This document shows, one piece after another, positions 2,098 to 27,845 of a stretch of 27,845 nt of DNA. The notes under the pieces are model-generated. The model ran no database searches. It saw only the letters and a list, made by a program, of their open reading frames with translations, and was not told where the DNA came from. Source of the stretch: a virus (taxonomy: Duplodnaviria > Heunggongvirae > Uroviricota > Caudoviricetes); IMG/VR virus record IMGVR_UViG_2802429221_000019, positions 1-27,845 of that record; one strand, given 5' to 3'. The stretch's first letter is position 1, and each line of letters starts with the position of its first letter. The position numbers were made by a program, and so were the translations under genes.

Positions 2098-3207
2098 TCA
2101 CTCTGTTTCCGCTATCCATTCCGGGATTTTTGCCTCAAGCTCAAGCTGCGTGGTAAAGCCGCTGTTATCAATGGTGTGCTCGGCTTTTGCAATAATCCAG
2201 TCCTGATTATCAATCTCGCTTTTAAATCCTGTTACCGTGCCATGCATTTCGGGGTAGAGTTCTGCTCGTCCACGTGCCAGCGTGATGGAGAATGATGCGG
2301 CTCCGCGTTGTAGTTGTTGCCACTTTGCCGCCGCTGCGCGTCTTGCTGCCTGCTCGTTCTGATAAGTCTTGCGTAACACAAACACATTGCCTTCCGCGCC
2401 TTCCATATAATCACCTTCACGGCTGCTGCTTTTCTCTTTTTTCGGTTTTGGCGGTTTGCGGCGTTTCACGCTGACTTTTTTCTTTTTCCCGTAATTAAGA
2501 TCAAGCCAGTAAGCGCGTACCCCCGTATACGCCTCGCGGTCAGCAATGCGGAACTGATGGCGATCGCCGCTGCTGCGGGTGATGGAGAACGATGGCAACG
2601 GCTGGCCCTGTGCGTTCACGCCACCGCCGGGCATGATGAATAACAGATTACCGCTTTTTACCGTGGTGATTGCGCCCAGCATTTCCGCCATGCGCGTAAG
2701 GAAGGACATGTCGCTTTCTTCAGTCTGGTCGGCGTGGTCGATTTCGATATCCATCAGCATTTCGCTGATTTGCGGTTTCAGACCGTACCGATGAGCGATG
2801 GCGGATACCACGCGCTCAACGGTCACATCATGCCAGGACACTTCACGTTTAACGTTAAATTCATCCCGAAAATCTGCGCTTCTGGCTGAAACAGTCAGCC
2901 TGTCCGGCGGTCCTTCGTGTGCGATTTCATCAACAATGTAAGACCCTTTTTCTGTCAGCGGTTCGCCTTTCCAGCCAATGAGAACCGTCAGGCACGCGCC
3001 CCGTGGTGGAAGCTGCAACTGACCATCCGCATCATCCAGCGTAATGGTGAGCTGGTCTGCCTCAAATCCCCGGTTGTCGGTCAGCGACAGGCTCATCAGG
3101 CGCTCTGCCACGCCGGACAGCGTTTTACCCTCCGCGAGAATATCAAAATCCGGCATTTTCACGGGGTCTGTGCTCTGACTGAGCAATTGCATGGTGGTAT
3201 CGGTCAT
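2098..3207 (-). CDS. D: tail protein D (late control D family)
   Basis: ORF-track frame 2098..3339; start chosen at ATG 3207 (MTDTTMQLL...) with SD GGGAGGGAG upstream. P2 gpD-like in size and sequence; contains a Lys-rich insertion KKKKVSVKRRKPPKPKKEK. Confidence 0.85.
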   Translation of the reverse strand: MTDTTMQLLSQSTDPVKMPDFDILAEGKTLSGVAERLMSLSLTDNRGFEADQLTITLDDADGQLQLPPRGACLTVLIGWKGEPLTEKGSYIVDEIAHEGPPDRLTVSARSADFRDEFNVKREVSWHDVTVERVVSAIAHRYGLKPQISEMLMDIEIDHADQTEESDMSFLTRMAEMLGAITTVKSGNLLFIMPGGGVNAQGQPLPSFSITRSSGDRHQFRIADREAYTGVRAYWLDLNYGKKKKVSVKRRKPPKPKKEKSSSREGDYMEGAEGNVFVLRKTYQNEQAARRAAAAKWQQLQRGAASFSITLARGRAELYPEMHGTVTGFKSEIDNQDWIIAKAEHTIDNSGFTTQLELEAKIPEWIAETE

Positions 3208-3364
3208 CTGCTCCCTCCCTGTGCGGCATGGTCGCATGTGTGTGCGGGCGGGGTTACTGCTTTTTGTTGTCGCCGGGCGGCAAGAACGGCGCAGGGGTGA
3301 GATTACGCGCGTGGTGGGTGATGATTGTTGCCGAATCATTTAACGGATACAAGGGGCTGAAGCT

Positions 3365-5655: not shown

Positions 5656-8449
5656 TATCCGGGTCGCTTTCAGCGCCGTTGACAGGCTGACCCGGCCTGC
5701 CGAAAACGCCCGCCGCCTGATGGGGCAGTTTGGTGACTCCATCCAGCGAACGCAGGGGGCGATCAAAAATCTCGAGCGTCAGGCGCGTTCATTTGAGCGC
5801 GCCCGTGACGCTGTCAGTAAAGCGGATGCGGGCATCGTAAAAGCACGACGCCAGCTTAACGCCCTTAATCAGTTACAACGCACGGGTACAGTGCTCAGCG
5901 AAAAACAGCAAAAGCTGATGCAGCAGTTAAGCACCCGGCTTGAACGCCTGAATGAATCGCGCACACGGGAAATTCAGAAAATGCGGGAACTTGGCGGAGA
6001 GCTGAAACGCCACGGCATTTCCCTGACAGGCAGCGATAACACCATCCAGCAGGCCATCAGACGCACCGAACAGTACAACAACCAGCTTGAACGCGAACGG
6101 CAGGCGCTTGCGCGTGTAACGCGGGCGCGTGAGCGGTATTCGCGCGCGCAGGAAACAGCGGGAAAACTGAAAACAGGTGGTGCGCTGGCAATTGGTGCGG
6201 CAGCGGCGGGCGGCTATGCTGCCGGGCGTTTTTTGCAGCCTGCGATCGGGTTCGGGAAAGAGATGTCCCGCGTTCAGGCACTGACGCGAATCGACCAGAA
6301 CAGCCCGCAGTTTAAGGTGCTGCGTGAGCAGGCGTTAAAACTTGGCTCTGAAACGCAGTTCACCGCAGGCGATGCCGCCAGTGGACAGGCATTTCTTGCA
6401 ATGGCTGGCTTCACTCCGCAGGCCATTCAGGCTGCGCTTCCCGGCGTACTGAGCATGGCAACGGCTGGCGGTATGGATCTCGGCGAGACGGCAGATATTG
6501 GCTCAAATATCCTGACGCAGTTCGGCCTTTCTGCTGACCAGATGGACCGGGTCGGTGACACACTCACCGCAGCGTTTACCCGTACCAACACTGACCTTCG
6601 CGCACTGGGCGAAACCATGAAATATGCAGGTCCGGTGGCGGGTAAGCTGGGAATATCGCTGGAGCAGGCCGCAGCGATGGCGGGCGTACTGGCGAATATG
6701 GGCATCAGAGGGAGTGATGCCGGGACGGCAATGCGTGCCAGCCTGGCTCGTCTGGCATCACCGCCAAAGGCAGCGGCAGAAGCGCTGAAAGAGCTGGGCG
6801 TGTCCGTCTCGGATGCCGGGGGCAAAATGCGCCCGATGGAAGATCTGCTGGCTGACCTTTATAAAGCTACCCGCAAATACGGGGAAGTTGACCGGGTATC
6901 CTTCTTTAAGGACATCGCCGGGGAAGAGGCTTTCACATCGTTTATGGCACTCGTTGATGCGGCGGGTGACGGTTCCTTACCCAAACTGAGAAAAGAACTT
7001 GAGGGCGCACGCGGTGAGGCTGAACGCACGGCAAAGGTTATGGCCGACAACCTTGATGGCGACCTGAAAAATCTCGACAGCGCATGGGAAGGTCTTCGTA
7101 TTCGCATCAGTGATCTGGTTGACGGTTCGCTGCGTTCTGTCACGCAGTGGCTAACGCGGGTGGTCTCAAAAGTGACGGCACTGGCGCAGGCCCATCCTGT
7201 ACTGACGCGCCAGCTACTGATTGCAGGCGGTGCGCTGCTGGCAGTGACTGCAACCGTAGGCTCGTTGTCGCTTGCTCTTGGTGTGCTTGCTGGCCCACTG
7301 GCAAAACTGCGTCTTGGTTTTTCCCTCCTGACCGGATCAATGAATGCTGTCAGGCTCCTGCCTGCACTATGGGGAATGGTGACGGGTTCCGTTTCGTTAC
7401 TGGGGGGCGCTATCGGGGCGCTGTTCAGCCCGGTCGGATTGATTGCTGCTGCGTTTGTGGCTGCGGCAGTTCTCATCTGGAAATACTGGGAACCCATCAA
7501 GGCGTTTTATGCCGGGGTGTTCAGCGGGATTATGGAGCGGCTGGCCCCGTTACGCGAAACCTTTGAACGGTTTGGTCCTGTTTTTGACGCAATCGGAAGC
7601 GGGATCAGCCAGGTGTTTAACTGGTTTAAATCGCTGTTGTCACCGATGGAGTCCAGCAAGGAAACGCTGGATAAATGCACAAGTGCTGGCGAGGTATTCG
7701 GTAACGTTCTTGGCGGTGCGTTACAGCTTGTCCTGACGCCTGCAAAAATGCTGCTGGATACGTTGGCGTGGATACTTGAAAAACTCGGTGTTCTTCCGGA
7801 TGAAGCGGAAAGGGCGCGCAAGAAAATCGAAGACGCGCAGCGTGCGGCCATTCTTCAGGACAAGGTTGCTCTGTTTCAGGGAGACATTGCGAAAATCAAT
7901 CCGCCGAAGCCTGTGGAAAATGGCAATGGCACCGGAGGTGATAACCCCAAAGACAACAAACCGCTCACAGACAGCAATACCGGTACGCTACGCAGACTCA
8001 GCAAAATTGCTGATAACACAGGTAAGCTGGTTGATGAGACGAAAAAACGCATTGGCCCCGGCGATATTGTCTTTAAGAACCTGCCCCGCGCACTTGCCGT
8101 TCGTGGGGAGTGGCAGGAGCGGAAGATTGCGCAGGTCAGTAAGCCTGCCCCCGCAATTAATATCACACCTGTGGTTCCGGCTCCGCTGCCTCCGGCGCTG
8201 GTCCCTGTTGTTGCGGCCAGCTCCCGCCCGGTGGCAGAGGCCATACGATCGCCAGTGGCATCAGTTCCTGCAACTTCCCGTAACCGGGAGCCTGTTGCCT
8301 CCGGATTTGGCGGTGAAATTCATGTTCATCTGCATAACGTTGTTACGCAGAATCCCCGCGAACTGGCGAAACTGGTCGGTGAAATGGTCAGGGCAGAAAT
8401 GGAACGGCGCGCCCGTGCCGGGCGTGGCAGTTTTTACGATAAAGATTGA
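5606..8449 (+). CDS. T: tail tape measure protein
   Basis: 947-aa ORF (GTG at 5606; possible ATG starts at 5633 or 5642); coiled-coil N-terminus, Gly/Ala-rich hydrophobic core, position between chaperone and U. Confidence 0.85.
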   Translation: MSGRHFAAGMQTMKTLDIRVAFSAVDRLTRPAENARRLMGQFGDSIQRTQGAIKNLERQARSFERARDAVSKADAGIVKARRQLNALNQLQRTGTVLSEKQQKLMQQLSTRLERLNESRTREIQKMRELGGELKRHGISLTGSDNTIQQAIRRTEQYNNQLERERQALARVTRARERYSRAQETAGKLKTGGALAIGAAAAGGYAAGRFLQPAIGFGKEMSRVQALTRIDQNSPQFKVLREQALKLGSETQFTAGDAASGQAFLAMAGFTPQAIQAALPGVLSMATAGGMDLGETADIGSNILTQFGLSADQMDRVGDTLTAAFTRTNTDLRALGETMKYAGPVAGKLGISLEQAAAMAGVLANMGIRGSDAGTAMRASLARLASPPKAAAEALKELGVSVSDAGGKMRPMEDLLADLYKATRKYGEVDRVSFFKDIAGEEAFTSFMALVDAAGDGSLPKLRKELEGARGEAERTAKVMADNLDGDLKNLDSAWEGLRIRISDLVDGSLRSVTQWLTRVVSKVTALAQAHPVLTRQLLIAGGALLAVTATVGSLSLALGVLAGPLAKLRLGFSLLTGSMNAVRLLPALWGMVTGSVSLLGGAIGALFSPVGLIAAAFVAAAVLIWKYWEPIKAFYAGVFSGIMERLAPLRETFERFGPVFDAIGSGISQVFNWFKSLLSPMESSKETLDKCTSAGEVFGNVLGGALQLVLTPAKMLLDTLAWILEKLGVLPDEAERARKKIEDAQRAAILQDKVALFQGDIAKINPPKPVENGNGTGGDNPKDNKPLTDSNTGTLRRLSKIADNTGKLVDETKKRIGPGDIVFKNLPRALAVRGEWQERKIAQVSKPAPAINITPVVPAPLPPALVPVVAASSRPVAEAIRSPVASVPATSRNREPVASGFGGEIHVHLHNVVTQNPRELAKLVGEMVRAEMERRARAGRGSFYDKD

Positions 8450-24382: not shown

Positions 24383-24450
24383 GTGCACGCACGGATCCTT
24401 GACGGATCCAGCCGCCATGCGGGCCGGAAGGGCAAAAAGTCGTTCAAAAA

Positions 24451-24480
24451 AATTGTGCAAATTTGTGCACTATTGTGCAA
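24451..24480. repeat. three tandem 10-bp repeats (ATTGTGCAAA / TTTGTGCACT / ATTGTGCAAA)
   Basis: TTGTGCA core at 24453, 24463 and 24473, exactly one helical turn apart, at the boundary of the AT-rich island. Confidence 0.6.
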
Positions 24481-24718
24481 ACCGAACGGAGTGCTTATTT
24501 ATAGAAAAATTGAGCCTATGTATACGACGTTGCTTATAAATACATCCCTGACTGTTATGTGAAAATATGCAAAGAAAATTACATGCTATGGAGATGAGAG
24601 TTATAACGACCTTTTCTACTTATTTGTAAAAGAGGTCGTTATGTAAAAGTTAAATTATTTTTTACTCTTGATATGTGTAAAAAATATAGCTTTGATGTTT
24701 ATATCCTATTAGAATACA

Positions 24719-26416
24719 TTATTTATCCTCTTTAATGATTTTGTTATAGTCAAAATCCCAAATTTTTCTGTCAATGCCGTTTGTTGGTGTAACCCGGTAG
24801 AATAAGGATCGTAATCCATTGTAAAAATACTGGAGAGATTTCTGATTTTCTGGTTTGTCTAACCAGTTTCTTGTAATCATTCTAAAGAATTCAATATGCT
24901 GATTGAATATTTTCTTATTTAATTTTCTTCTTAAACCGGATGTAGACTCATGGTTGTCTTTTCTTTTCTGAATTTCAGTTTCAATTGATTGTAATTGAGG
25001 ACGTATCTTGAGTAAGTATAACTCTTTCGAAAAACCATTGTTAATTATATCCTGATTTTCCCAGAAGGAAGAGTCGTCGGTATTATAAAGGTGCTCACAA
25101 TGCTCAAATATCAATTGTTCTGGAGCTTTTTCACCCGGCAGTGATATAATTCCTCTCTGATCCTCAGGGCTGTGATCTCCATCAAGAATACAAATTGATT
25201 TTAACGAGGTTTCCTTAAGATGAGAATCATTAAAAATAGTTTTTAAATTGTCTGCACCAATGAAACAATCAATTAAGTGAAATGAATTACTAACTATAGC
25301 AAAATTTGGATATTTGCTTATCCAATAACCAAGTATTTCATTAAATAAAAAGCGAGCTTCTTCATCTTCCGTGAAAACTGGTATCTTGTTCCTTGTGTAT
25401 ATCTCATCCTTTGTTTGTGTTTTCAGATACATTGTTATTTTTAATATATCAGGATTATCCAAAAGCAGAGCCTTTGTAATATTGTTAATTAGATAGGCAA
25501 CATGATATTTTTTATGAAAAGCATATTCTAGCAATGTCAGACTGTGCGTTGTGAAAAATACTTGAATCTTATAATCTTTTGCGTATTGATAAATTTTATC
25601 TAATAATCTTATCTGTAAAGAAGGATGTAAAGTGGCATCAAATTCATCTATTAACAGAATGCTTTCTTTTTGATCAGTGGATTGAATAAGTGATTCAAAA
25701 TAATACCTAAGGCTAACTAATGCCTTGATTATAACGAATATATTGTCTTCCCCGGATGATATGGTATTAGAATCAATTGCTGGGTTATCGGTATCAAATA
25801 ATGGGCCAGCTTTAAAATCTCCGATATTGTTTGATTCTATATTTATAATATTAATGCCCAAAAGTTCATTATATATTTTCGATATATAACCAACATACTC
25901 TTCTGGTAGGTTTAACGGAATTTTTGTAAGGGCGTCGTCTTTAGTTTCACCAATTGGGAATAGTCGCGATAATCCAAGATATAAAACTGGTTTAGCTGGA
26001 AGTGATTGTTTTTCTTTTCCGCGTGGGTATACTGGTTTGATAGCATACCGTTGCGCTTCGTCTGGATTTTTTGAGTTGTGCTTTCTGAAGTCTAGTGTGC
26101 TATGATCCAAATAGTTAATAGAAAATAACACACCTTTTGTTCCCTCTGCCGGATCGGTGTAATTTTTTGATTCCCTAACAATTGCTTCCATTTTGGGGTT
26201 GGCTATTTTGTTTATAGATTTTATAACTCTAACACAATTACTATTTGAATAATTTTGTGATCGAGATGGTGGCATTTGGAAACCATTGCTAATTAAATGA
26301 AGCAATGTTGTCTTACATGTCCCATTGGTTCCTGATATTATATTGATGTCTTCATTGAATGAGAAGTCAATATCTATCAGTTTCTTAAATTTTTTAAAAC
26401 TAATTTCTTTAATCAT
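24719..26416 (-). CDS. OLD-family-like ABC ATPase with C-terminal Toprim-like nuclease domain
   Basis: 565 aa; Walker A GTNGTCKTT (aa 29-37), signature-like ISSGE (aa ~219-223), Walker B ILLIDE (aa 253-258), H-loop FFTTHS (aa ~287-292); C-terminal PVFTEDEE (Glu ~350) and ILDGDHS (DxD 412-414) fit a Toprim fold; SD AAGGA 8 nt upstream; very AT-rich. Confidence 0.7.
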   Translation of the reverse strand: MIKEISFKKFKKLIDIDFSFNEDINIISGTNGTCKTTLLHLISNGFQMPPSRSQNYSNSNCVRVIKSINKIANPKMEAIVRESKNYTDPAEGTKGVLFSINYLDHSTLDFRKHNSKNPDEAQRYAIKPVYPRGKEKQSLPAKPVLYLGLSRLFPIGETKDDALTKIPLNLPEEYVGYISKIYNELLGINIINIESNNIGDFKAGPLFDTDNPAIDSNTISSGEDNIFVIIKALVSLRYYFESLIQSTDQKESILLIDEFDATLHPSLQIRLLDKIYQYAKDYKIQVFFTTHSLTLLEYAFHKKYHVAYLINNITKALLLDNPDILKITMYLKTQTKDEIYTRNKIPVFTEDEEARFLFNEILGYWISKYPNFAIVSNSFHLIDCFIGADNLKTIFNDSHLKETSLKSICILDGDHSPEDQRGIISLPGEKAPEQLIFEHCEHLYNTDDSSFWENQDIINNGFSKELYLLKIRPQLQSIETEIQKRKDNHESTSGLRRKLNKKIFNQHIEFFRMITRNWLDKPENQKSLQYFYNGLRSLFYRVTPTNGIDRKIWDFDYNKIIKEDK

Positions 26417-26433
26417 CTATATCATCCTTAAAT

Positions 26434-27279
26434 TTAAATGTCAGGGATTTTTATACCATGATTATAAATGATAATTTCTAGACCTTTTTTCTTATCTTGT
26501 GCAGTATAATTAAGCGTATAATCAGTCATATTGAATTCATGATATATGCTTTTTATTTCAGGCACATTGTCATAAGACACAACCCAAGGTAGTTGAATTT
26601 CCCGTAGTGTATTAGCGATTTTTACATGATCATCATGTTTATAAAAATTTCTATATAACTCTGCTCCTTTAACATAATAAGGTGGATCAAGATATATTAG
26701 ACTATTTTGGGGTAGCAATGCTTTTTGGTGTAGCAGAAAATCTACAGCATCAAAATTCGATACGTAAATTTTCTCCTTATATGCCCCAATTAGTTCAATC
26801 CTTTTAATTAACTCTTTTTTGTTGAATCGTGCATCTAACTTCCATGGTCCTTTTTGTTCTTTCCCTCCAATAACGCCAGCCTTAAGTATTCCTGAACGGT
26901 TTGTTCTATTTAAAAAGAAAGTAGATAATGCGACTTCAAGCATACTATATTTATCATTGTTTAGGAGTATCTCCTTTTGAGTATGCCAATTTTCAATAGT
27001 CACAGGAACTTCATCAATCATTTCACATAACAGATCGTTATGATTAACCACTGCAAACCAAAAAGAATAAAGGGCAGGATCAATATCATTTATGAAGATA
27101 TTTTCAACAAGACCGTTAAGGAGCAAACCTAATGCAACACCGGCTCCACCTGCATAAGGTTCAGCATAACATCCACCAATGAGATCATTGTTGCGGAGTA
27201 TTTGTTCAATATGTGGCAAGAATTTTGCCTTACCTCCCGGATAACGAAGAGGGGTTCTAAAATGAGAAGGCTTTGTCAT
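26434..27279 (-). CDS. Dam-family (D12 class) N6-adenine DNA methyltransferase
   Basis: 281 aa; motifs YPGGK (aa 13-17), EPYAGGAGV (aa 40-48, SAM-binding FxGxG type), DPPY (aa 198-201); 17-nt gap to the downstream OLD-like gene. Confidence 0.85.
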   Translation of the reverse strand: MTKPSHFRTPLRYPGGKAKFLPHIEQILRNNDLIGGCYAEPYAGGAGVALGLLLNGLVENIFINDIDPALYSFWFAVVNHNDLLCEMIDEVPVTIENWHTQKEILLNNDKYSMLEVALSTFFLNRTNRSGILKAGVIGGKEQKGPWKLDARFNKKELIKRIELIGAYKEKIYVSNFDAVDFLLHQKALLPQNSLIYLDPPYYVKGAELYRNFYKHDDHVKIANTLREIQLPWVVSYDNVPEIKSIYHEFNMTDYTLNYTAQDKKKGLEIIIYNHGIKIPDI

Positions 27280-27367
27280 CCACGATTTTCTCAGTAAAAA
27301 ATAAACATAATCTTAACATGGCACTTGAGTTTTCCCGATAAAAAACATCGTCGCCGTCCATAGATAT

Positions 27368-27383
27368 TTGCATAGTTATGCAA
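27368..27383. promoter_or_regulatory. perfect palindrome TTGCATA-GT-TATGCAA, candidate operator in the leader of the methyltransferase operon
   Basis: 16-bp dyad located between the predicted promoter and the methyltransferase start. Confidence 0.35.
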
Positions 27384-27402
27384 AAAATCCAGTTTTCAAT
27401 GA

Positions 27403-27432
27403 ATTAAGGGGAATTATATCAATTGCATTCTA
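27403..27432 (-). promoter_or_regulatory. candidate extended -10 promoter for the methyltransferase/OLD-like operon
   Basis: minus-strand TGATATAAT (27411-27403) with weak -35 TTGTGT (27432-27427, 18-nt spacer). Confidence 0.35.
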
Positions 27433-27464
27433 TTCAACACAATATTCGGTTAGCGATTCACATC

Positions 27465-27845
27465 TCATCCCTCATGATGGAAAAGGCATATCCAACTTTG
27501 TAATTGTTTTTTCTCATCATCATTTTGATTACTAAAGTGCTGTTTGCCTCTCTTTTGGAGCAAAGTAGCCTTGCGGCGGGCGCGTTCAGTGGTTTCATTG
27601 ATTCTTTGTGCGTGCTCTGCGTCACGGATGGCGCGCAGCATGTCAGAAAGCACGGTAACGGGAGTTTTCATGGTGTTCTGGTCCTGCTGAATTGTGGATG
27701 CCAGGCGTGCGGCGGCTTCGGGGTCTGATGCCCCGAGCTGCTCCAGATAGCTGGAGACCGGGTTATGGCGGATCTCCGTGCTGCTTACGCCGTGATTACG
27801 GCTCAGGCGCTGCCAGAGCTGCGTGATTCGGCTGTCCGGGCGGGT
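27465..27845 (-). CDS. phage early-region protein, C-terminal part (5' end outside window)
   Basis: frame is open from the window edge (hand translation ...TRPDSRITQLWQRLSRNHGVSSTEIRH...) to the stop at 27465; function not recognised; last ~30 codons are AT-rich. Confidence 0.55.
   Translation of the reverse strand, partial: TRPDSRITQLWQRLSRNHGVSSTEIRHNPVSSYLEQLGASDPEAAARLASTIQQDQNTMKTPVTVLSDMLRAIRDAEHAQRINETTERARRKATLLQKRGKQHFSNQNDDEKKQLQSWICLFHHEG

Follow-up and report, generated by a model that had tools for sequence, protein, structure and literature searches.

The leader of a prophage methyltransferase-ATPase operon contains an AT-rich dyad, TTTGCATA-GT-TATGCAAA (8+2+8; 27367-27384), which we tentatively read as a single ARG-box-type site for the host arginine repressor ArgR. 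Held with somewhat less than even confidence and based on sequence resemblance, this reading would have ArgR at most trimming an accessory promoter that is specific to the cassette. The dyad does not serve as the switch that controls an R-M-like module. It is specific to one prophage lineage, and it is an ordinary, probably minor detail of regulation.

The leader and its prophage setting

The window, i.e. the whole 27,845-nt stretch of DNA that was analyzed, covers the greater part of a P88-like (Xuanwuvirus, P2-family) E. coli prophage. The preliminary description of this DNA had placed an operon leader at 27280-27464, and these coordinates are correct: the 185-bp intergenic leader of a minus-strand operon lies between the stop codon of gpA (TGA, 27467-27465) and the start codon of a methyltransferase gene (ATG, 27279). 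The upstream neighbor is the 3' end of gpA, the phage replication endonuclease gene (27465-27845, minus strand), whose open reading frame runs off the window and meets no stop before the TGA at 27467-27465. Of 5,426 complete E. coli genomes searched by BLAST, 15 contain the leader and its flanks with 98-100% identity, and in these RefSeq names the genes bordering the leader "replication endonuclease" and "DNA adenine methylase".

Homology to the P88-like backbone ends at ~27568-27571, inside gpA, and restarts at ~24479-24482. The last 35 codons of gpA (27465-27570) are specific to the cassette and not part of the P88 backbone; alternative gpA tails are present in P0122-P0126, and a frameshift variant of the gpA tail was also found. 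The cassette is positioned between gpA and the portal gene, a site known as a defense hotspot of P2-like phages, where P2 itself carries tin and old and where four of the defense systems of one study were also located (PMC9519451). GC content is ~30% in the cargo and 33% in the leader, compared with ~50% in the phage backbone. A cassette-specific, AT-rich spacer of ~235 bp (27335-27570) contains the dyad together with the distal of two predicted promoters, and no other match to this spacer was found in E. coli genomes, phages, or plasmids.

No terminator was called between gpA and the cargo (26900-27845), so that transcription of the phage early genes in lytic growth probably continues into the cargo. 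At the other end, a terminator-like hairpin with a T run, GTGCACAAATTTGCAC (24445-24470, minus strand; stem 24470-24455), is located in the backbone just past the cassette and probably ends the cargo transcript. An upstream open reading frame of 38 aa that starts in the dyad was rejected, as it is without a ribosome-binding site and is not conserved. A search of the literature for the exact dyad and for two protein accessions found nothing.

The methyltransferase-ATPase module and its promoters

The first gene of the operon (26434-27279, minus strand) encodes a 281-aa D12-class (Dam-like) N6-adenine DNA methyltransferase (Pfam PF02086, E = 1e-20). The second gene, 17 nt further on (24719-26416, minus strand), encodes a 565-aa ABC/SMC-type ATPase (AAA_15/AAA_21) with an uncharacterized C-terminal half. 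Methyltransferase and ATPase are paired in all eight genomic contexts, these being the window and seven others represented by the contigs of the closest methyltransferase homologues (67-84% identity). The order methyltransferase-then-ATPase occurs in a relaxase-bearing element, a Salmonella integrase island, Pectobacterium chromosomes, an E. coli smpB-associated island, a Klebsiella island beside a PemK toxin gene, an uncultured contig, and a Pantoea island. Among homologues at <=61% identity the order reverts to a ~500-aa gene preceding the methyltransferase, and a scan of species-representative genomes with the methyltransferase returned only relatives at <=56% identity.

The module resembles the defense system PD-lambda-5 in its methyltransferase, which matches the PADLOC models PD-Lambda-5_B (E = 9e-122) and MTase_II (E = 9e-108), and in its location within the same P2-family hotspot. 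PD-lambda-5 is composed of a ParB/HEPN protein (A, the first gene) and a methyltransferase (B) (PMC9519451 supplement; Vassallo et al. 2022), whereas the module described here has an AAA_15/AAA_21 ATPase that follows the methyltransferase. No PD-Lambda-5_A match for the ATPase appears among the best 25 of its 103 PADLOC matches (best E = 1e-16). With an ATPase in place of the ParB/HEPN protein, the module is therefore a relative of PD-lambda-5 with a different partner, and not PD-lambda-5 itself.

The earlier observation that no controller gene is visible in the operon was right, as the operon consists only of the methyltransferase and ATPase genes. Searches with Pfam and PADLOC revealed no helix-turn-helix controller gene in the operon or adjoining it within the window, the window contains no C-box, and no regulator common to the eight module contexts was found among their called genes.

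Judged on sequence alone, two elements of the leader conform to the extended -10 of sigma-70 promoters (TGnTATAAT-type), and they are predicted to direct starts at ~27405 and ~27302, the distal one being placed ~7-8 nt past its -10. The distal element, already recognized in the preliminary description, is a perfect TGATATAAT on the minus strand (27421-27413) and is cassette-specific; it was missed by a generic promoter scan because it is without a -35 match. Two TGATATAAT sites are present in the window (0.58 expected), and since the other lies antisense within the ATPase gene, AT-rich cargo DNA evidently yields sites of this kind. The proximal element, TGTTAAGAT (27318-27310, minus strand), is found downstream of the dyad and had been overlooked in the preliminary description. 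Eight nucleotides past it, an A followed by six T (27296-27302, minus strand) would serve as the start and initially transcribed tract, and this tract is conserved together with the promoter.

Conservation of the proximal element was assessed by aligning the upstream regions of the homologous modules (L003, L005, L006, L027/L030, L031, and L032-L034). The pattern TGnTAnnnT is kept in six of the seven other contexts, the exception being the Pantoea locus L117. It belongs to a shared block ~37 nt before the start codon that consists of TGnTAnnnT, exactly 7 nt, an A with four to seven T, and (G/A)CGG(A/G)TG ending in the start codon. Upstream similarity between the homologous modules and the window ends near 27335. 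The alignment suggests that the proximal extended -10 is the module's own, apparently unregulated promoter, which travels with it in most genomes.

The preliminary description had justified an operator in the leader by the frequent need of R-M-like modules to delay nuclease expression on entry into a new host. The comparison among contexts gave no support to this rationale. Neither the dyad nor the distal TGATATAAT element is present upstream of homologous modules in any of the seven other contexts, and six of these share only the promoter that lies downstream of the dyad. Absent from the other contexts and followed by a conserved promoter, the dyad therefore does not belong to the control that the module carries with it and cannot alone shut the operon off.

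Resemblance of the dyad to an ARG box

The palindrome was first described as a perfect 16-bp sequence. The 16-mer TTGCATAGTTATGCAA is indeed present at 27368-27383, but its central G and T are non-complementary, making it a 7+2+7 dyad that one more pair extends to 8+2+8. Its placement just downstream of a predicted transcription start holds for the distal promoter, relative to which the 8+2+8 dyad occupies ~+22 to +39; relative to the proximal start it lies at ~-65 to -82.

Copies of the dyad were sought with a leader BLAST against the 5,426 E. coli genomes, phages, and plasmids, with exact and gapped scans of contigs, and with a protein search using the gpA tail. The 39 leader copies retrieved (15 E. 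coli genomes, 14 viral, 9 metagenomic contigs, and 1 Logan contig, the last of which carries a gpA deletion along with the dyad) are 98-100% identical. Because all 39 are nearly identical, conservation and covariation are unusable as a test of the dyad. In the 98% variant, from strain ZH177, the leader differs by four substitutions that spare the dyad and both -10 elements, an outcome that is uninformative as the 18-bp dyad would be left untouched by chance in about two-thirds of cases.

Within the window, an imperfect second copy, TTGCATT-C-TATTCAA (27423-27437), has two mismatches and a 1-nt spacer and overlaps the spacer and -35 zone of the distal promoter. It is located 54.5 bp from the main dyad, center to center, and differs from it in half-site spacing; a second site with <=3 mismatches arises in 8.6% of shuffles, and the imperfect copy is not significant on its own. 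Neither the rest of the 27.8-kb window nor the prophage's immunity and early-gene region yielded another close copy.

The ARG box was tested because a gapped scan of metagenomes, which gave three unrelated loci, returned among them a site in front of an argD-family gene. On this unrelated metagenomic contig (L104), ATTGCATATTTATGCAAT precedes a transaminase gene of the argD family (TIGR00707, 463 bits), with a second box 2 bp away, an arrangement that makes it a textbook, canonical tandem ArgR operator. We scored the dyad with a symmetrized matrix whose 16 boxes come from eight E. coli K-12 operators (carAB, argEC, argA, argG, argR, argI, artJ, and artP). At 15.39 bits, by a matrix that is mildly circular in that its boxes were chosen by consensus matching, the dyad is the top-scoring 18-mer of the 27.8-kb window (next best, 11.98 bits) and falls within the leave-one-out range of the real boxes (3.1-20.9), i.e. 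at mid-strength. The score was reached by 139 of 20,000 leader shuffles (0.7%), a frequency to be discounted for multiple hypotheses, as the ARG box was preceded by several other motifs that had been considered. In 58 kb of natural, unrelated DNA of <36% GC, ~2 chance hits score as high, or about one per 26-29 kb.

The consensus of the ARG box has been given as TNTGAATWWWWATTCANW for E. coli and AWTGCATRWWYATGCAWT for Streptomyces (PMC5291005), and the dyad agrees with these at 13 of 16 specified positions and at 15 of 18 positions, respectively. A consensus for E. coli derived from RegulonDB, TTATTTGCATAAAAATTCATT, has TGCAT/ATGCA half-sites (PMC7826281), and such half-sites are found in the real E. 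coli boxes of argG, argR, carAB, argA, artJ, and artP. The positions of the box that are most conserved or contacted are G4, A6, T7, A12, and T13 (PMC6640053). Written as TTTGCATAACTATGCAAA, the dyad has all five of these as well as C15, and its non-consensus bases are C5, C10, and G14, of which C5 and G14 are seen in the real boxes of argG, argR, carAB, and artP. Variants of the arms likewise occur in genuine boxes, with TTTGCATAA in argG and argR and TATGCAA(A/T) in carAB and artP. Like an ARG box, the dyad is 18 bp long and AT-rich and has its center of symmetry between positions 9 and 10.

The arrangement around the dyad differs from that of known operators. Canonical ArgR operators of E. 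coli have two boxes, 2-3 bp apart, that overlap the -35 and -10 elements (PMC6640053, PMC4381063), whereas the dyad overlaps neither element of the leader promoters, being located past the distal start and well before the proximal -35. A weak candidate for a second box, ATCCAGTTTTCAATGAAT (27387-27404), lies 2 bp from the main dyad and scores 2.0 bits, below all 16 reference boxes (lowest 3.06). The mean for the cargo is -13 bits, and ~2% of cargo 18-mers exceed 3 bits. The other three flanking box positions score -4.8 to -37.5 bits, and a single 2.0-bit result in four tries is about a 1-in-10 event. Unlike known ARG boxes, the dyad is effectively single and sits in prophage defense cargo without a link to arginine metabolism, and there is no obvious biological reason for coupling the module to arginine. 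No ARG-like box of comparable score was found upstream of the homologous modules.

From these features we infer that ArgR may bind the dyad and may exert a regulatory effect there. The preliminary description had reasoned that a regulator acting on the dyad, if it is an operator, would have to be encoded elsewhere, and this is supported, with the ARG box of host ArgR as the best sequence match. The operon would then be transcribed from tandem extended -10 promoters, the distal one cassette-specific (~27405) and the proximal one module-borne (~27302), with the dyad between them. Its most likely binder would be the host ArgR hexamer with L-arginine. ArgR would be expected to damp the distal promoter no more than modestly and in dependence on arginine; neither the proximal promoter nor transcription entering from the phage early operon would be affected. 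A small effect is expected because the box is essentially single, lies downstream of the distal start, and would be bound by a protein that is a poor roadblock: at lrp, ArgR positioned downstream of the start represses little, and carP1 transcripts are not blocked by it (PMC6640053). A stronger proposal, that the lineage has wired the accessory cargo promoter to host ArgR through 27367-27404 and perhaps also 27423-27437, seems unlikely to us. Were it true, expression of the cargo in the lysogen would vary with arginine supply, and a mobile defense cassette would have gained host metabolic control after its insertion.

Alternative origins of the dyad and implications

Almost as likely as an ArgR site is a fortuitous palindrome. 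The dyad would then have arisen in the AT-rich, recently acquired spacer, with no function and a merely coincidental likeness to the ARG box, and we consider this a serious possibility, if also one short of an even chance. Dyads with arms of >=8 and a spacer of <=4 occur in 151 of 5,000 dinucleotide-preserving shuffles of the leader (3%), whose GC content is 33%, which makes the dyad no more than moderately unlikely; the whole window has eight such dyads against 2.1 expected, mostly GC-rich terminator hairpins. An ARG-box score this high turns up about once per 29 kb of natural AT-rich DNA, and the second perfect TGATATAAT, antisense inside a cargo gene, illustrates that consensus-like elements arise by composition. 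The lack of both dyad and distal promoter in seven of seven other contexts also favors chance, as does the unconstrained state of the adjoining gpA tail, with its alternative tails and frameshift variant. However, a lone 185-bp leader would seldom give either result by chance (3% for the dyad, 0.7% for the ARG-box score). The dyad is moreover placed between two promoter elements, with its imperfect copy overlapping the distal one, and it is the best ARG-box match in 27.8 kb.

It is improbable that the dyad, instead of binding a protein, acts as an RNA (or single-stranded DNA) hairpin: a stem-loop close to the distal transcript's 5' end, or in early-operon RNA that reads through, would then affect mRNA stability or processing. 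An RNA hairpin had been raised as an alternative in the preliminary description, and it is physically possible: the dyad and its flanks form an extended imperfect hairpin (27361-27391, minus strand) of -9.1 kcal/mol as RNA and -5.9 kcal/mol as single-stranded DNA, the stem continuing past the dyad via TGGAT/ATCTA. The local RNA fold compares with a mean of -1.75 kcal/mol for shuffles of the 33-nt segment, but the z-score of this 33-mer is inflated, the segment having been picked for being a palindrome. Early transcripts would cross the dyad too, given the absence of a terminator between gpA and the cargo. Against such a role, the stem is AT-rich and has only 7 bp with a 4-nt loop, and ~15 nt separate the predicted 5' end from the start of the hairpin, which is ~90 nt away from the ribosome-binding region. 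The leader as a whole folds no better than its shuffles (z = -0.02) and has no family match in Rfam, and the hairpin is not conserved in related modules. A function as an intrinsic terminator was rejected, as the stem is AT-rich and no U tract comes after it; a T run precedes the stem on the transcribed strand.

Still less probable is an operator for a dedicated controller or repressor, C-protein-like or phage-encoded, that delays or limits an R-M-like module in a new host. This idea draws on a module that is methyltransferase-first with a putative effector ATPase, on the location of the dyad downstream of a strong promoter-like element, and on the presence, among the genes of the phage early operon, of a small MarR-like winged-helix gene. 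As with the C boxes of R-M systems, the dyad is found in the leader of a methyltransferase operon for which the timing of expression after transfer would matter. In contrast to those systems, there is no C gene here, no equivalent dyad precedes any homologous module, the dyad neither lies upstream of nor overlaps the module-borne promoter, and the partner gene encodes an ABC-type ATPase, not a recognizable restriction endonuclease. No regulator gene is located in or beside the module in the window, and none is shared by the called genes of the other contexts. Because the conserved promoter lies downstream of the dyad, a repressor bound there would be unable to silence the operon, and other close copies of the dyad are lacking in the window and in the prophage immunity and early-gene region. 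A phage CI operator was rejected, as the motif in the prophage's own switch region (L023, 6753-7050) is GGTATC-N6-GATACC and a TTGCAT/ATGCAA dyad is absent there.

Recognition by CytR is very improbable. Each arm of the dyad matches six of the eight positions of the CytR octamer, with half-sites like GTTGCATT, and the arms are 2 bp apart with a TTGCAT core; a 2-bp spacing is reported as optimal for CytR alone, the optimum being AATGCAAC-N2-GTTGCATT (PMC3454398). The order of the half-sites is nonetheless everted here, TTTGCATA-N2-TATGCAAA as opposed to AATGCAAC-N2-GTTGCATT or direct repeats (PMC3454398). Natural CytR sites have CRP sites on both sides, but none flanks the dyad: no CRP-like TGTGA-N6-TCACA with <=3 mismatches was found in 27280-27451, and the hits in the window as a whole are at chance level, 102 against 99 expected. 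A Xer/cer-type site with an ArgR accessory box was also dismissed, as by eye the sole XerD-arm-like stretch is the conserved promoter and there is no XerC arm. TyrR, PurR, FNR, LexA, Fur, NsrR, and MarR-type regulators, compared through their consensus sequences, gave no fit to the dyad.

With ArgR as the preferred, if tentative, reading, the dyad is a candidate further example of a well-known type of operator in an ordinary setting. The control element of the module itself is the short conserved extended -10 promoter with its A-T6 start tract, and not the palindrome. The module seems to spread without a dedicated controller, which bears on how pairs of a methyltransferase and an effector become safely established in new hosts. 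If ArgR binds the dyad, this would be a small case of an acquired defense cassette coupled to host physiology, and it would indicate that junction DNA at the P2-family hotspot can add regulation to the module that it carries as cargo.

Cassette junctions and a possible further cargo gene

On the gpA side, the cassette junction lies inside gpA itself (window 27465-27570), and the final 35 codons of the gene are made up of AT-rich cargo DNA in place of P88 backbone. In other fragments of gpA, different tails follow the sequence ...ERARRK, and the tail of one such fragment, P0126, is a frameshift of the window's own gpA tail; the C-terminal tail of gpA therefore seems to be unconstrained. Hotspot cassettes appear to recombine within the 3' end of gpA. 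At the portal-side junction, three tandem TTGTGCA(A/C) repeats lie in conserved phage backbone (window 24456-24482), and part of these repeats makes up a minus-strand, terminator-like hairpin (24470-24455), after which comes a T run.

A 413-aa ORF on the minus strand (window 2098-3339) adjoins the tail sheath gene, a position corresponding to the second P2 defence hotspot (Z/fun). This ORF has no match in PADLOC, and its sole NCBIfam match is a weak, VgrG-related one (E = 8e-7) that falls far below cutoff. The ORF could be a cargo gene that is still uncharacterised.

The methyltransferase-ATPase pair

The methyltransferase of the module (pair at window 24719-27279) is a close relative of PD-Lambda-5_B. 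Whereas the partner in PD-lambda-5 is a ParB/HEPN protein, the partner here is an AAA_15/AAA_21 ATPase whose C-terminal half (approximately residues 300-565) is without annotation. Sampled methyltransferase homologues with 49-61% identity are instead preceded by either an ATPase homologue or an unannotated gene of ~500 aa. The pair in the window may represent an undescribed variant defence system.

Leader elements and the module promoter

A 38-aa ORF on the minus strand (window 27257-27373) begins in the leader, at an ATG within the ARG-box-like palindrome's right arm, and overlaps the methyltransferase start by ~20 nt. Lacking both a ribosome-binding site and conservation, this ORF is probably not a gene.

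Scanning for the promoter-plus-dyad pattern also led, by chance, to a canonical tandem ARG operator on the metagenomic contig L104 (Ga0099364_10016506, 5959-5996), with boxes of 16.1 and 20.9 bits spaced 2 bp apart. The host of this contig is AT-rich, and the promoter that the operator overlaps, TGTATAAT, precedes a gene of the argD family. A similar TGCA-type tandem adjoins a winged-helix-like ORF at a further locus, L102.

A second perfect extended -10, TGATATAAT, occurs on the plus strand at 25142-25150, antisense within the ATPase gene. It is either an antisense start or one of the spurious promoters that AT-rich foreign DNA typically contains. In the Klebsiella loci L032, L033 and L034, an additional extended -10, TGTTATAAT, precedes the module promoter by ~45 nt. 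With a second upstream -10 in this context too, tandem promoters may arise repeatedly in the AT-rich flanks upstream of the module.

The module promoter itself (window 27296-27318, minus strand) follows a pattern shared by the window and six of seven other contexts, in which exactly 7 nt separate a TGnTAnnnT -10 from an A that is followed by 4-7 T, just upstream of methyltransferase genes (L003, L005, L006, L027, L031 and L032). The fixed distance of 7 nt places the predicted transcription start on the A-T6 tract. UTP-sensitive promoters with reiterative transcription include those of pyrBI, codBA and upp, and the A-T6 tract resembles their initially transcribed regions. The A-T tract of the module promoter could be a conserved means to limit or tune expression.
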